Below, piece after piece: positions 37,327-43,501 of a DNA stretch of 64,000 bases. Location of the stretch: positions 3,424,001 through 3,488,000 of the forward strand of contig OY760074.1 of the NCBI GenBank assembly GCA_963663035.1. The letters are read 5' to 3'. Source of the DNA: Acidobacteriota bacterium (GTDB taxonomy: Bacteria; Acidobacteriota; UBA6911; RPQK01; JADFOI01). The notes beneath the pieces were generated by a model. The model did no database searches. It was not told the origin of the DNA and was given only the letters and a program-made list of their open reading frames with translations. Both the position numbers and the translations under genes were made by a program. Every line of letters begins with the position of its first letter. Position 1 is the stretch's first letter.

Positions 37327-39669
37327 TTGACATTCCCGATGGCGATGACCCTGGCCATCCTTCTGCTGGCCGTTGTGCTGTTCGTGACCGAGCGGCTGCG
37401 GGTCGATGTGGTGGCCATGGTGGTTTTAGTCAGCCTGGTTCTGACCGGCTTGGTCACTTCGGAGAAGGCACTATCCGGATTCAGTAACCCAGCGGTGGTG
37501 ACCGTCTGGGCAGTTTTCATTCTCAGTGGCGGCCTCTCTCGGACGGGTGTGGCCAACCTGGTGGGCCGATATCTCCTACGCCTGGCCAACCACGGCGAAG
37601 TCCGACTTTCAGTGATGATCATGCTGACGGCTGGTATCCTGTCGGCTTTCATGAACAACGTGGGTGTGGTCGCGCTGCTTTTGCCCGTGGTCATGGATAT
37701 TTCCCGCCGCACCGGCACTTTGCCCTCAAAGTTGTTGATCCCTCTATCTTTTAGCGGACTCCTGGGTGGGCTCACCACCCTCATCGGTACGCCACCGAAT
37801 ATTCTCATCAGTAACCTGGCGGATGACTTCGGTATGAGCCCCTTTCGGTTTTTCGATTTCACGCCGGTCGGCCTGCCCGTTATGTTAGCTGGGATTGCCT
37901 TTCTGGCCCTGATTGGGCCTCGCCTCCTGCCCACAAGAGACTTGAGCAAAGTGGCTACGCGCGGCGAAACAGATCTGAAAAAGTTCTTCACCTTGGATGA
38001 GCAAATGTTCATTGTAGGCTTGGGGCCGGACTCCTTTTTGGCCGGCAAGACCCTGGCTCAAAGCCGCCTGGGCTCAGCTCTGGGGTTGATCGTCATTGGC
38101 ATTATCCGCGATGGGCGAACCAAATTGGCGCCTCATCCCAACACCACTCTTAAAGCTGGGGACAGATTACTAGTTGAGGGACAGCCGACTCAGTTCACCG
38201 AACTCCGTGGGCAACAGCTTGTGGTGGAAGACGATGACGTGAGCGTCGAGAGACTGATTACATCTGAAATCAATATGGCCGAGGTCAGGCTCTCCCTCGA
38301 TTCCGCACTTCTGGGCCAGACAGTGAAGGAAATAGATTTCCGCCGGCTTATGGGGATTAACGTACTGACCCTTTGGCGCCAGGGCGTCCCTCAAAAGAGT
38401 AACCTGCAGGATACTCCGCTGCAGACTGGAGACATCTTGCTGGTACAGGCAGCACGTGCACAGCTGGATGCGCTGAGGGATGATCCCAACATTATCGTCT
38501 CCAGAGTCGACCAGGCCAGAGTCTATCAACTGAACGAAAGGCTTCTCCTGGTGGGGGTCCCGCCGGAATCACTCCTGGTCGGGAAGACCTTGGCCGAGAG
38601 CCGGCTGGGGGATGCCTTCGGTGTGACGGTGTTAGGTATCGTCCGCGAGGGGACGACCCATCTGATGCCCAAGCCTTCAGAAGAACTGAAGGCTGGTGAC
38701 AGTTTGCTGGTTGAAGGACAGCTGGACGACCTGGTGACGATGCGTGGCCTCCAGACCCTGGAAGTGGAGTCCCAGGCCCCGCCAGACCTCAGCGAGCTGG
38801 AGTCGGAAAGCATCGGCCTGACAGAGGTGGTGCTAACCCCTCACACCACCCTGGTAGGGAAAACACTGGGCCAGCTTCACTTCCGCGAAAAATACGGGTT
38901 AAGTGTGCTGGCTATATGGCGCGAGGGTGAGGTCTATCGCTCCGACCTGCGTGACATGGAACTGCGCTTCGGCGATGCTCTTTTGTTTCACGGTCCTCGA
39001 GAGAAGTTGAAGATACTGAGCGATGAACCGGATTTTCTGGTGCTAACCGGGAAAGTGCAGGCAGTGCCACTGCTGCACAAAGCGCCCATCGCTACTCTGG
39101 TGATGGTTTTTGTGGTGCTGTCGGTCATGCTTGGGTGGCTTCCGATTTCCATGGCCACCGTGGCAGGAGCGACCGTGATGATCCTGACGGGCTGCCTGAC
39201 GATGGACGAGGCTTACCGCTTTATCGACTGGCGCGCCGTCTTTCTCATCGCCGGCATGCTGTCCTTGGGGGTTGCCATCCAGGAAAGCGGCACTTCACAG
39301 TTCATCTCCCAGGCTATCCTCTCACCGATCGGTGGGTTTGGGCCACTGGCCGTGCTGACCGGTGTCTTTGTCATAACCGCCCTGGCTGCCCAGGTCATGC
39401 CCACTCCCGCTGTGGCAGTGCTGATGGCTCCCATTGCCTTGAACACCGCTTCCACGTTCGGCATGTCCCCGCAAGCCCTCCTGATGACGGTGGCGATGGC
39501 TGCCTCTGCCAGCTTTATGAGCCCGGTGGCTCACCCGGCCAACATGCTTGTGATGGGCCCCGGCGGCTATCGCTTTACCGACTACACCAAGATAGGCTTG
39601 CCCCTCACGCTGGTGATCCTGGTGGTGGTCTTGCTGGTGCTGCCCATCTTCTGGCCCCTCTATCCTTAG
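37327..39669 (+). CDS. SLC13 family permease with four TrkA-C (RCK_C) domains
   Basis: FMNN, TTLIGTPPN and PGGYRFTDY motifs; four repeats of ..P.S.L.GKTL... Confidence 0.9.
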   Translation: MTFPMAMTLAILLLAVVLFVTERLRVDVVAMVVLVSLVLTGLVTSEKALSGFSNPAVVTVWAVFILSGGLSRTGVANLVGRYLLRLANHGEVRLSVMIMLTAGILSAFMNNVGVVALLLPVVMDISRRTGTLPSKLLIPLSFSGLLGGLTTLIGTPPNILISNLADDFGMSPFRFFDFTPVGLPVMLAGIAFLALIGPRLLPTRDLSKVATRGETDLKKFFTLDEQMFIVGLGPDSFLAGKTLAQSRLGSALGLIVIGIIRDGRTKLAPHPNTTLKAGDRLLVEGQPTQFTELRGQQLVVEDDDVSVERLITSEINMAEVRLSLDSALLGQTVKEIDFRRLMGINVLTLWRQGVPQKSNLQDTPLQTGDILLVQAARAQLDALRDDPNIIVSRVDQARVYQLNERLLLVGVPPESLLVGKTLAESRLGDAFGVTVLGIVREGTTHLMPKPSEELKAGDSLLVEGQLDDLVTMRGLQTLEVESQAPPDLSELESESIGLTEVVLTPHTTLVGKTLGQLHFREKYGLSVLAIWREGEVYRSDLRDMELRFGDALLFHGPREKLKILSDEPDFLVLTGKVQAVPLLHKAPIATLVMVFVVLSVMLGWLPISMATVAGATVMILTGCLTMDEAYRFIDWRAVFLIAGMLSLGVAIQESGTSQFISQAILSPIGGFGPLAVLTGVFVITALAAQVMPTPAVAVLMAPIALNTASTFGMSPQALLMTVAMAASASFMSPVAHPANMLVMGPGGYRFTDYTKIGLPLTLVILVVVLLVLPIFWPLYP

Positions 39670-39866
39670 CCGGGAGAATGCATAGATTTTCTACTGCAGT
39701 GCCGCAATCATCCGCGCTGACTGCGTTATGCGACCCGCAAGCGGGTACCCCTCGTCCGCCAGTCGGAGCCGCAGGCTTTAGCCTGCGGGCCCGTGGGCTA
39801 AAGCCCACGGCTCTGTTTTCCGGCGCCTGCGGCACTTCGTCACGAAAACCTATGCATTCTCCCGGC
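39669..39866. mobile_element. MITE-like non-autonomous element with an internal REP-like hairpin
   Basis: IRs GCCGGGAGAATGCATAGATTTTC / GAAAACCTATGCATTCTCCCGGC (one mismatch); TTA on both flanks; internal GGAGCCGCAGGCTTTAGCCTGCG...GGGCTAAAGCCCACGGCTC. Confidence 0.75.
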
Positions 39867-39880
39867 TTAGCCGAATTCCT

Positions 39881-41296
39881 CTAGAAGAAACGCCAGAGCC
39901 ACCATTTTTCAAAGCCAACCTTCGCCCAGTAGATCAGCTGGGAAGGTCCCCAGGCACGACTCTCAGCCGCACCAAAGGGAGGCCAGCCAGCCGGATAGAC
40001 GGTGCGATTTGCAGCGGCGCGACCCGCGCCGAAAGCCAGCAGTCATAGGGTGTGCAGGCGGAAGTTTGTGGGTTCTCCATTACCTGTTATTTCCACCGTC
40101 AGGTTGTGAGCTACCACTTCAGCTTGTTGATGAGCGACGCCGCCCGCGCAGTCACCGATGCAGTACACATTGCCCCAACGAGTCATCGATTTGGAGACCG
40201 GCATGTTCGCGCAGTCGTAGTACACATTGCCCCAACGAGTCATCAGGGTATCGTAGTCCACCCCCGCTTGTGTCTCGACCAGGCTGCTGTCCAGCAGCAC
40301 CTGAGCCGGTTGATGGGGTGGAACCAGAAAAAGCAGATCGTATGGGAGTTCGTAGCCGTAAAGGGCCTTGACGACTTTGCGCTGGGAATCGATGGACTGA
40401 ACCGAAAATGAGTAATGTTGCTGGACTCCTCTCTTCTTGCTCTGCGCGTCCATCCACACCGCCGGAGTGCGATCTTCTCCTGCCGGCTCCGGGTTGGGAG
40501 TAAAAAATTCGATCTGTACCTTTTCGCGCAGCCCTCGGTCTTGGAAGTAACTGTCCAGCATCCACTGGGCTTCGTAGGGTGCAGGAGGGCACCGGTAGGG
40601 CCCGGGTGGAACTCCTACTAGAATCCGACCCTCTTGAAAGGATTCAAGAGTCTTTCGCAAGCGCAGCGTGGCCTCCAGCTCCCAGCTGTGTTGAGCCGCC
40701 TCGGTAAAGCCCGGAAGCAGCTCCGGTGCCGTACGCAGGCCCAGTGAGATGATCAGGTAGTCATAGGAGATGGGCCCGCTGTCCAGCAGGACCTCCTGGC
40801 GCTTGGGGTCGATCCCCTCAATTTCGGCCTGGATCACTTGGACATTGCGTTGCTCAAGCTTTTTTAGCTTGCGCACGATATCGTTCGGTTGTCTCTGCCC
40901 CACCATCAAGAAAAGGAAGCCCGGCATGAAGATGTGTTCGGTCCGTCGATCGATCAATATCACGTCGTGATCCTTGCCCAGATTGATCCCCAGCTGTGTC
41001 GCGGCTACCAGGCCTCCACTTCCACCTCCCAGCACCAGGATCTTGCGGCGCTTGGTTGTGGGCGGCTTCGGTGTCATGAGATGGAGATCGTTGAGCCGAC
41101 GCTGGCGCCACAACCGTTGGTCTTCCACGCCCTCCTGGGTCATTTCGCTGGCGAACTCCGAGGTGGAACTCAGGAGAAAGGAGACAAAGGAATCTGACAT
41201 CTGCCTGATTGGCTCCAGCAGATGATTCGACCTGAGCGCGAATAAAAAGATTGCCACTGCAAAGAACAGACCGATCGCCAAAATCGAAGTTAGCAC
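39881..41296 (-). CDS. Sulfide:quinone oxidoreductase-like FAD flavoprotein, putative selenoprotein (in-frame TGA at 40043-40045)
   Basis: GGGSGG FAD motif, YRCPPAPYE, IGDCA. Reading through the TGA gives a further 53 aa ending YWAKVGFEKWWLWRFF before TAG at 39881-39883. Confidence 0.75.
40015..40031 (-). promoter_or_regulatory. Candidate bacterial SECIS hairpin
   Basis: CGGCGCG-GGT-CGCGCCG starts 11 nt after the TGA; G at the first loop position. Confidence 0.6.
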
Positions 41297-41343: not shown

Positions 41344-42324
41344 CTAGCGGATGAAAGTGTCTTCTTTTCCGAGATTAGCGACAACTTCGCTCAAGGAAAC
41401 CTCCGCTGGGTCCCCCTTCTCGAGCAAGCCAATCTGACGCAAGAATTCTCCGATCTGAGCGTGATCTCTAGGTGTAACCGGTTTGAAAGGAGGGACTGGG
41501 TCTCCGAGATCCAGGCCGAAGTGCTTCATGGCTGATTTCATGATGGGCGGCAGACCATAGGCTGCCCACTTGGCCGGGAACATGGAGTAGAATCGTTGCC
41601 AGTACTGCGCCCGTTCGTGATCTCCCTCGCGGAAGGCCTTAACCACCTGAGCACCGATTCGAGTCCCGGGGGGTGGCATGGTGGCACCGGAGCCGCCCAT
41701 CACCAGCGTCATCAAAAGCGGCTGCATGGTGGTGAAATAAAGAGCGTTCCCGCTTAACTGTATTTCTTCGATCATCCGGGTGATCTTAATGATGTCGCGT
41801 GAACTCTCCTTAAAAGCGGAGACGTTGAAAATGGTACTCAGCTGAATGGTATTTTCCATGTTTGGATCAGCGCCGGGACCTGGATTATGGTAGGCGACGA
41901 TCGGCAAGGGGCTGGCCAGGGCCACCTCGCTAAAGTAATCGACCAACTCCTGCATGGCAGGCTGACCTCCCCAGGGCCGCAGCGGCATCAGGACCTGTAC
42001 CATGTCAGCGTCCAGGCTGGCACAGTATTCGGCCAGCTCAATCACCTTTCCGTGGGCAGGGTGGGAGGCGCCAAGGATCACCGGGATGCGTTTGCCAACC
42101 ATCTCGGTTGCCCGACGCATCAACTCTTTCCGCTCTTCCAGAGACAGGACCGTGTACTCCGCGGCCTCGACTGCGGCGATGGAAATCGCATCGGCGTCCT
42201 CCACGATGAAGTCGATTTCTTTCTCCAGGGCGTGGTAGTCAATGTTTCCCTCCTGGTCAAACGGGGTCAAGCAGGCACCGATGATGCCGTTTATCGAAGG
42301 AAGTGATGGCGGCTGAGTTTTCAT
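41344..42324 (-). CDS. Dihydrodipicolinate synthase/N-acetylneuraminate lyase family aldolase (divergent)
   Basis: LTPFDQEG.ID, LSLEERK, AYHNP, FKESS Schiff-base Lys. Confidence 0.8.
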   Translation of the reverse strand: MKTQPPSLPSINGIIGACLTPFDQEGNIDYHALEKEIDFIVEDADAISIAAVEAAEYTVLSLEERKELMRRATEMVGKRIPVILGASHPAHGKVIELAEYCASLDADMVQVLMPLRPWGGQPAMQELVDYFSEVALASPLPIVAYHNPGPGADPNMENTIQLSTIFNVSAFKESSRDIIKITRMIEEIQLSGNALYFTTMQPLLMTLVMGGSGATMPPPGTRIGAQVVKAFREGDHERAQYWQRFYSMFPAKWAAYGLPPIMKSAMKHFGLDLGDPVPPFKPVTPRDHAQIGEFLRQIGLLEKGDPAEVSLSEVVANLGKEDTFIR

Positions 42325-42496: not shown

Positions 42497-43501
42497 ATGA
42501 TGAAAATCGATGTCTTTAACCACATTTTAACCCCCAAGTTTAATGAAGAGCGCCTCAAGCACGCGCCCCCTGAGTTGAGTTCGATCCTGGCAGCACGTAT
42601 CAAAAACATCCCTGCCTTGTGGGATCTCGATACGAGATTCAAGATCATGGATATGTTTGAGGATTATGTGCAGGTGCTGACACTGGCCAATCCTCCGCTG
42701 GAGGTGCTTGCGGGGCCGGAGGAGGCCTTGGAACTTGCCCGCATCGGCAACGATGAGATGGCTGAGCTTGTGGCCAAATATCCTGATCGTTTCGTGGCCG
42801 CAGTGGCCTCGATTCCCATGAACAATGTGGATGGGGCTCTGCAAGAGATGGACCGGGCGATCAATGATCTGGGGTTGAAAGGTGTGCAGATTTTTTCGCC
42901 CATGAAGGGGCGTGCCCTCGATCATCCTGACTTCTTACCGGTCTTTGAGAAAATCGCAGGATACGACCTGCCGATTTTGCTTCATCCGGCAAGGAATTTC
43001 CGATTCGCCGATTATCCTGCTGAGGATGAGTCCCAAGTTGCAATCTGGCATATCTTTGGCTGGCCCTACGACACAGCCGCAGCCATGACCCGGCTGGTGC
43101 TTTGGGGAATATTCGACAAGTTTCCGAATCTAAAAATCATTACCCATCATTTGGGTGGTCTCGTACCCTTTACGGAGGGAAGAATCCTGTCGGGATATGA
43201 CAAGCTGGCCAAAACCCCGAAGGGGAAGAGCTTGCTGGATCGACTTGAAAAGCATCCCCATGAGTACTTCCGAATGTTCTATGCAGACACGGTAACCAAT
43301 GGATCACTTGCAGCCCTGGAGTGTGGAGTGGATTTTTTTGGCGCGGATCAGGTCGTGTTTGCTACGGACCATCCTTTTGACTCGGAAGGCGGCGCCGGGT
43401 ATGTTCGCGACACCATCAGTGCTCTAAGCGGGCTGACGGCTTCGGACGAAGACAAGAAGAAGATCTACCAAGAAAATGCGAAGCGCTTGTTCAAGCTGTA
43501 G
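42497..43501 (+). CDS. Amidohydrolase_2 family protein (ACMSD/LigW-like decarboxylase or hydratase)
   Basis: IDVFNH, LHP, HHLGG, FATDHPF, NAKRLF. Confidence 0.85.
   Translation: MMKIDVFNHILTPKFNEERLKHAPPELSSILAARIKNIPALWDLDTRFKIMDMFEDYVQVLTLANPPLEVLAGPEEALELARIGNDEMAELVAKYPDRFVAAVASIPMNNVDGALQEMDRAINDLGLKGVQIFSPMKGRALDHPDFLPVFEKIAGYDLPILLHPARNFRFADYPAEDESQVAIWHIFGWPYDTAAAMTRLVLWGIFDKFPNLKIITHHLGGLVPFTEGRILSGYDKLAKTPKGKSLLDRLEKHPHEYFRMFYADTVTNGSLAALECGVDFFGADQVVFATDHPFDSEGGAGYVRDTISALSGLTASDEDKKKIYQENAKRLFKL

Follow-up and report, generated by a model that had tools for sequence, protein, structure and literature searches.

We analysed a gene at 39881..41296 on the minus strand of a 64,000-nucleotide stretch of DNA (the window) from an Acidobacteriota bacterium (assembly GCA_963663035.1, contig OY760074.1, positions 3,424,001 to 3,488,000). 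The gene was found to encode a flavoprotein resembling sulfide:quinone oxidoreductase (SQR) and flavocytochrome c sulfide dehydrogenase (FCSD), and to be interrupted by an in-frame TGA codon. The best explanation of the observations as a whole is that it is a true selenoprotein gene, with selenocysteine (Sec) at the second redox position of the enzyme (probability about 0.88). Taken alone, the reading of the TGA as Sec is strongly supported by the sequence comparisons given below. It appears to represent a kind of enzyme that was catalogued only recently, in a distinct variant for which Sec is obligate, with a new operon context and a fused partner module.

Translation starts at a GTG (41296) and proceeds for 417 codons, with the peptide ending in NFRLHTL, to the TGA at 40043..40045. 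Past the TGA the same frame is open for 53 more codons to a TAG stop (39881-39883), which gives 471 sense codons including the TGA. This is the arrangement that a sequence-only reading of the DNA had reported. An open frame of 53 codons is weak evidence by itself, and it is conservation that makes it non-random. The read-through product matched Pfam families Pyr_redox_2 PF07992 (4e-14) and FCSD_central PF21706 (5e-10), both above cut-off. The closest solved relatives were human SQOR, bacterial and archaeal SQRs, and flavocytochrome c sulfide dehydrogenases, with 17 solved SQR/FCSD sequences among the matches. A dinucleotide-binding motif for flavin adenine dinucleotide (FAD), GGGSGG, is located at residues 90-95 (41012..41029, minus strand) with the Pyr_redox_2 match, and its glycines were invariant in the alignments. 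Based on the predicted two-dinucleotide-binding-domain fold, the FAD motif and the FCSD central domain, the protein is assigned to the SQR/FCSD superfamily.

Relatives of the gene were identified at 150 loci in a scan of 185,579 species genomes, and the counts over 80 loci given here and below refer to the best 80 of these 150. The codon at the TGA column (residue 418 as assembled, residue 408 in the canonical form described below) was TGA in 79/79 alignable loci, the remaining locus, L018, being cut by a contig end. A separate BLAST-based sample covered the class of one Binatia-labelled carrier; the gene was found in 18 of 151 genomes, and each of the 18 matches had exactly one TGA. The check that had been proposed on relatives, for TGA or TGY at this codon and a conserved hairpin, came out in favour in both sets. 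The tail downstream of the TGA was 53 codons long in all 78 complete loci, and its peptide was strongly conserved. Among these 78 loci the terminal stop varied (TAG in 34, TGA in 23, TAA in 21), whereas the internal codon was invariably TGA. These comparisons show the TGA to be a character of the family and not a private mutation.

Public protein predictions show how gene callers have treated this codon. We found 893 such proteins at E <= 1e-10. Among the best 120, 98 were 329-359 aa long and covered only 68-73% of the query. Of 18 aligned public homologues, 16 end at the residue directly before the TGA column, as had been expected of automated annotation, and one other partial protein ends earlier.

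In the selenocysteine insertion sequence (SECIS) of Escherichia coli fdhF, the UGA is followed by an 11-nt spacer and a hairpin with a G in the loop. The hairpin downstream of the TGA had been likened to this element, and we found it at 40015..40031 on the minus strand (5' arm 40031-40025, loop 40024-40022, 3' arm 40021-40015), in agreement with the description of a 7-bp stem and a G-first loop 11 nt after the TGA. The spacer comprises 40042-40032, and the GC hairpin, with 7 bp and a 3-nt loop starting with G, has a predicted energy of -11.9 kcal/mol. Six stem pairs were kept in 78-80 of 80 sequences, every change being a wobble, and the seventh pair forms in 29/80. Entropy at the three four-fold degenerate sites within the stem was 0.10-0.29 bit, compared to 1.13-1.97 bit at 28 other four-fold sites (codons -36 to +53, including two sites in the loop). 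The minimum free energy (MFE) was at or below -7.5 kcal/mol in all 80 sequences and ranged from -8.3 to -11.9. Section 5 of PMC13188914 gives a model of the bacterial SECIS (bSECIS) with a loop of 3-9 nt, a stem of 4-16 bp, a G in the first two loop positions, a UGA distance of 16-37 nt and MFE <= -7.5, and 80/80 sequences agree with these constraints as they stand there.

The position that the TGA holds in the enzyme was determined from homologues that carry a cysteine (Cys). In a profile search over 1.84 billion protein representatives, the clade itself scored 506 and 454 bits (truncated entries), after which scores dropped to at most 291 bits for full-length proteins of about 380-390 aa. 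Among 19 aligned distant full-length homologues, 18 have Cys at the TGA column; the exception, P0162, has Phe. The Cys homologues show the context C-x-x-x-x-G-x-G-[KR]-A, and a C-terminus of the form K..FEK.WL.RWF is common to both groups. Alignment of the read-through protein to SQR homologues had been proposed as a check, and U does fall on the conserved Cys column. Profile alignment to human SQOR paired the TGA column with the Cys of chain position 339, and Cys236 with chain position 161, and the spacing of 178 residues is that of SQOR Cys201 and Cys379. The pairwise (phmmer) alignment to SQOR ends at residue 371 of the window protein, before the TGA column, so that only the profile alignment pairs the second redox position.

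Cys236 (40589..40591, minus strand), in GPYRCPPAPYE, is the first redox Cys that had been recognised in the motif CP.APYE. It was invariant in both homologue alignments and aligns with the equivalent of SQOR Cys201. In SQOR, Cys201 forms a charge-transfer complex or a C4a adduct with FAD, while Cys379 carries the persulfide that is handed to the acceptor, its thiolate resolving the adduct (both as described in PMC11039317). Since the TGA column aligns with SQOR Cys379, Sec would replace the resolving, sulfur-carrying residue. This agrees with the proposal that the TGA occupies the position of the second catalytic Cys, and both redox-active positions of the SQR/FCSD superfamily are, on this alignment, kept. 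The tail of 53 codons (39884..40042, minus strand) ends in an aromatic amphipathic helix, is conserved and homologous to the C-terminus of the Cys-type proteins, and was paired in a profile alignment with the C-terminal end of Acidianus SQR 3h8l. The helix is likely a membrane-binding segment.

The genome, a single contig of 3.59 Mb, encodes SelA, SelB (above the curated cut-off), SelD and tRNA-SeC, which answers the question of whether selA, selB, selC and selD accompany the gene. SelA was also found in 5/5 other carrier genomes tested. The selD gene of this genome (L010, G000:C1:3111136-3112059, outside the window) contains one in-frame TGA, and its SelD is probably a selenoprotein itself.

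The sequence-only reading held that SQR was not a recognised selenoprotein family. This has to be corrected, since the idea of a Sec-containing SQR is already in print and curated. NCBIfam NF049943 (SQR_III_seleno, 'type III SQR, selenoprotein subtype') is listed in a table of a 2026 review (PMC13188914), and is traced there to deep-Sep (Xiao & Zhang 2025, PMC12013277), where it is an NAD(P)/FAD-dependent oxidoreductase of Desulfosediminicola. NF049943 was the best NCBIfam match of the window protein, with scores of 215.8 bits for the window protein and 249.5 and 251.6 bits for the canonical proteins of L014 and L019, all below the cut-off of 525 bits. In a sample of 401 genomes from one phylum, 22 had true NF049943 members, which scored 596-680 bits; 9 matches had a TGA and 16 had none. 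By these scores the window clade falls outside NF049943. A quick maximum-likelihood tree (58 rows) placed the window clade on one branch (support 92 in the Shimodaira-Hasegawa-like approximate likelihood ratio test, SH-aLRT) and NF049943 on another (100), and the Cys-type proteins grouped with NF049943. Since the two branch apart, with Cys-type proteins in between, the tree suggests two separate replacements of Cys by Sec. Three Thermodesulfobacteriota-type genomes (G275, G303 and G376) each have two NF049943 paralogues, one with and one without a TGA, that is, Sec and Cys versions side by side.

Six types of SQR, I-VI, have been described (PMC9666304). Among curated models the type III Sec subtype comes closest to the window protein, which scores below its cut-off, and the best solved match is human SQOR. 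The window clade was not found in the literature on selenoprotein SQRs or on Binatota that we covered; the deep-Sep supplements and Haft & Tolstoy 2025 lie outside this coverage and may bear on the point. Literature on selenoproteins combined with sulfide quinone oxidoreductase and selenocysteine yielded only work on mammalian SQOR and selenide.

Based on sequence conservation, the UGA at 40043-40045 would be decoded as Sec by SelB together with Sec-tRNA(Sec). SelB would be recruited by the conserved GC hairpin, which lies within the coding sequence and starts 11 nt downstream. The product would be a flavoprotein of the SQR/FCSD superfamily that binds FAD and sits monotopically in the membrane; in it, Cys236 is the putative counterpart of the FAD-proximal Cys201 of SQOR, and Sec418 (canonical 408) would stand for SQOR Cys379. 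By homology, the catalytic cycle would most likely pass through a Cys-S-(S)-Se-Sec bridge, with two electrons going to FAD and then to membrane quinone, and the selenolate may be expected to speed the resolving and sulfur-transfer step. The odds are about even between sulfide or persulfide as the physiological substrate and another sulfur or selenium compound of the linked operon. Sulfide is not given better odds because such constant operon company is unusual for SQRs.

A number of observations weigh against the interpretation as a Sec-containing SQR. P0022, a public prediction, is the sole protein in the clade that reads through, and it has Asn at the Sec column. Both the first redox Cys and the tail are retained in P0022, which nests within the Sec clade in the quick tree and may represent a secondary loss of Sec. 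A search with the tail alone (residues 410-471) gave 69 candidates, none at E <= 0.001, and so no close full-length Cys form; P0022 was missed as well, which shows this search to be insensitive. Covariation in the hairpin was limited to one double change among the 80 sequences, a score that was reached by 191/500 shuffles. Because compensatory covariation is missing, support for the hairpin comes from conservation, as measured by the entropy at synonymous sites. No SECIS family was matched by Rfam at E <= 10 over 39700-40200. All clade members seen come from metagenome-assembled genomes (MAGs). The GD...P.SK FAD motif is disrupted in the assembled copy. Sulfide as the substrate, and with it sulfide:quinone activity, is proposed from homology only, and the universal linkage of the clade to a gene of the DHDPS family is not a known feature of SQRs.

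A DHDPS-family (class I aldolase/lyase-like) gene is located at 41344..42324 on the minus strand, 47 nt upstream of the flavoprotein gene (Pfam DHDPS 1e-31; below all NCBIfam cut-offs). Such a gene is the same-strand neighbour of the flavoprotein gene in 75/80 loci (upstream in 71, downstream in 4), and the five loci without it have at most 779 nt of upstream sequence. Further partners were a CADD/PqqC-like di-iron oxidase (55/80 loci), an arylformamidase-like cyclase (57/80) and, adjacent in 12/80 loci, a gene combining metallo-beta-lactamase (MBL) and rhodanese domains and resembling persulfide dioxygenase. In the window an Amidohydro_2 gene (42497..43501, plus strand; Pfam 3e-32) is transcribed divergently; such a gene was present in 9/80 loci, acidobacterial ones and some from Chloroflexota. 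All operon partners scored under every curated NCBIfam cut-off.

The N-terminal module of the window protein (residues 1-83; 41048..41296, minus strand) consists of a hydrophobic helix at about residues 3-21 and a conserved segment of about 50 residues, and it matched no Pfam or NCBIfam family. In most other lineages the module is free-standing. It is then an open reading frame (ORF) of 58-145 residues with the DHDPS-family gene on one side and the flavoprotein gene on the other, and only a few codons separate its end from the flavoprotein start (e.g., L023:3001-3189). All three kinds of stop codon occur between the two, so these are real stops. Homology to the module was present upstream of the core in 76/79 loci, and two of the three misses had less than 300 nt of upstream sequence. 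The fusion of module and flavoprotein was found only in the acidobacterial lineage. The fusion there, together with the adjacency elsewhere, speaks for the small protein as a probable partner of the enzyme. The module had earlier been taken for an extra N-terminal membrane anchor. The hydrophobic helix is indeed present, and it occurs in several of the free-standing small ORFs too, but the module as a whole is a conserved small partner ORF and not a mere anchor added to the enzyme.

From this operon it could be argued that the enzyme is not a physiological SQR, and that it is instead a Sec-dependent oxidoreductase of thiols, persulfides or selenide, with a role in a dedicated small-molecule pathway whose genes form the operon. 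We consider this alternative a serious one that falls slightly short of an even chance. It would account for a DHDPS-family neighbour on the same strand in 75/80 loci, for the di-iron oxidase and the cyclase in more than half of the loci (55/80 and 57/80), for the small partner ORF in 76/79, and for the fact that every partner lies under the curated NCBIfam cut-offs. The absence of the partners elsewhere points the same way: DHDPS, cyclase, oxidase and small-ORF partners were not found beside 7 Cys-type loci (31-37% identity; not the P-proteins themselves), and DHDPS, small-ORF and other operon partners were not found within the 1.5-kb flanks of 12 NF049943 loci. On the other hand, the protein retains the two SQR redox positions as well as a C-terminal helix of the SQR type, and the MBL-rhodanese gene, which is typical of sulfide oxidation, is adjacent in 12/80 loci. 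We know of no pathway that joins DHDPS-family, di-iron oxidase, cyclase and SQR-like families, although no search was made for one. A fuller version of this picture is put forward tentatively, at somewhat lower odds still. It holds that the clade is a second, independently evolved, obligately Sec-dependent clade of SQR-like quinone reductases, known so far only from uncultured Binatia, Acidobacteriota, Chloroflexota and similar bacteria, and that a two-component membrane enzyme (flavoprotein plus small partner, fused here) works in a four- to five-gene operon with the di-iron oxidase, the arylformamidase-like hydrolase and the DHDPS-like lyase for a sulfur or selenium small-molecule pathway rather than in general sulfide detoxification.

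The assembled copy of the gene contains an aberrant stretch at 40144..40262 (minus strand). Part of the NVY-GDCA FAD motif occurs twice in it, within the two copies of a 25-nt exact direct repeat (40219-40243 and 40162-40186), and two codons (IR) are missing. Neither copy of the repeat as assembled keeps the invariant motif NVY.IGDCA..P.SK. Logan contigs from three DNA runs of three studies (X1, X2 and X4) skip 40145-40186 (42 nt) and have 6 extra nt at 40215-40218 and 6 more behind 40262; elsewhere not a single letter was found to differ from the window. The canonical arrangement given by these contigs is a protein of 461 aa with U at 408, so that the earlier '471 aa, U418' holds for the gene as assembled and not for the canonical form found in 3/3 runs. 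We regard the rearrangement as probably an assembly or consensus error.

The less likely case, to which we give a minor but appreciable share, is that the family is a true selenoprotein family and that this genome nevertheless carries the rearrangement. The enzyme would then be impaired, since neither repeat copy has the full motif. In favour of a real rearrangement, the three indels are all in frame (net +36 nt and -6 nt) and the genome was assembled as one 3.59-Mb contig. Moreover, contigs with the 6-nt insertion at 40262 account for only part of the depth there (8.27 of 81.2 in X2 and 18.9 of 210.8 in X4), because other high-depth contigs also lie at this place. Against it, the otherwise matching contigs of X1, X2 and X4 are all canonical, as are all aligned homologues (18/18 in one alignment and 25/25 in another).

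It is very improbable that the TGA is a genuine stop. The product would then be a shorter flavoprotein (417 aa here and about 331 aa elsewhere), and the DNA downstream would be a small gene in its own right or have a regulatory role. Gene callers do read the TGA in this way, and TGA serves as the terminal stop of the same gene in 23/78 loci. However, the tail follows the TGA directly and in the same frame, the spacing is identical in 78/78 loci, and the tail lacks its own start codon, while Cys-type homologues run continuously through the position. Neither the second redox residue nor the membrane helix would be present in the short product. A genuine stop also leaves the invariance of the internal codon (79/79 TGA, unlike the terminal stop) and the frozen synonymous sites in the hairpin unaccounted for. 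A private nonsense mutation or decaying pseudogene, for which the unusual duplication plus deletion around the FAD motif of the assembled copy might speak, has a next to negligible chance given the TGA in 79/79 loci across labels of several phyla and in 18/18 matches of the class sample, the strong purifying selection on the tail, and the absence of the rearrangement from otherwise identical contigs in 3/3 DNA runs. The sequence-only reading had named a private mutation as the finding that would overturn it. The TGA is common to all alignable loci, and with the 18/18 sample matches a private origin of the codon is ruled out.

The 80 loci were labelled, by record titles, as MAGs of Acidobacteriota, Candidatus Binatia, Chloroflexota, Verrucomicrobiia and Eisenbacteria, and of 'delta proteobacterium'/Thermodesulfobacteriota/Syntrophobacter-type bacteria, with no isolate among them. 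In a sample of its own phylum the gene was found in 2/401 genomes including the window genome, and in a sample of the phylum of another carrier, G405, the clade gene was found only in G405 among 401 genomes. These are samples and give no proof of absence; the distribution of the gene is patchy. In metatranscriptome run X20 four short contigs were found, one of which (162 nt) was identical within the gene, which is too little for a claim of expression.

Directly downstream of the gene stop lies an intergenic element of about 200 nt with terminal inverted repeats (39670-39868). It gave 341 BLAST high-scoring segment pairs in its own genome, up to about 200 per position, and contig depth over it was in the thousands in three metagenome runs. 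It looks like a repeat of the miniature inverted-repeat transposable element (MITE) or repetitive extragenic palindromic (REP) type. A sub-threshold Rfam match to Acido-Lenti-1 was located at 39791-39836 on the plus strand (24.2 bits compared to a gathering score of 37). The convergent neighbour (37327-39669, plus strand) encodes a 780-aa CitMHS/SLC13-type transporter with four TrkA-C domains and is not conserved beside the gene at other loci.

If the gene is read as a selenoprotein gene, hundreds of database entries, such as 'NAD(P)/FAD-dependent oxidoreductase' and 'sulfide:quinone oxidoreductase' proteins of 329-359 aa, are cut at the Sec codon and lack the catalytic residue and the membrane helix. 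Since the entries are cut there, metabolic reconstructions for bacteria that abound in soil, sediment and sponges treat a broken enzyme as whole. NF049943, the sole curated model for Sec-SQRs, misses the clade, and a new model is needed to mend the annotation. The clade would also be a natural experiment in which Sec takes the place of the resolving, sulfur-carrying Cys of an SQR. Because the clade has no close relatives containing Cys, it suggests that the chemistry needs selenium, and the constant set of operon partners points towards a pathway not described so far.

Compared to the bSECIS consensus, the hairpins of the clade are alike in having a loop of 3-5 nt, a stem of 6-7 bp, an invariant GG at the loop start and a distance from UGA to loop of 17-18 nt. 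They differ in that the stem is formed by codons of a conserved G-A-G-R-A peptide and shows no compensatory changes. NF049943 shares with the window clade the superfamily, the Sec column and an HxxU motif (listed for NF049943 in the table of PMC13188914), and both families are computational predictions. The motif reads GHATU or GH[SA]TC in NF049943 and LHT[IL]U in the window clade, identity between the two is about 30%, and the C-terminal tails differ. NF049943 mixes Sec and Cys forms (TGA in 9/25 matches), whereas the window clade has TGA at every inspected locus. The metagenomic Cys-type homologues (P0123, P0125, P0127 and others) resemble the clade in length, architecture, the context of Cys or Sec and the C-terminus. 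They are 30-36% identical to it, score at most 291 bits on the clade profile compared to 506 bits for the clade, and have Cys instead of Sec. The best solved relative is human mitochondrial SQOR, which we take to be a type II SQR (PDB 6oi5, 6mo6 and 8dhk; Cys201-S-S-S-Cys379 trisulfide; profile E 8e-46). The FAD motif, both redox positions (Cys236/Cys201 and Sec418/Cys379) and the C/U-x-x-x-x-G context are shared with SQOR, while the window enzyme is bacterial, has Sec for Cys and differs in its C-terminal tail, its small partner module and its operon context.

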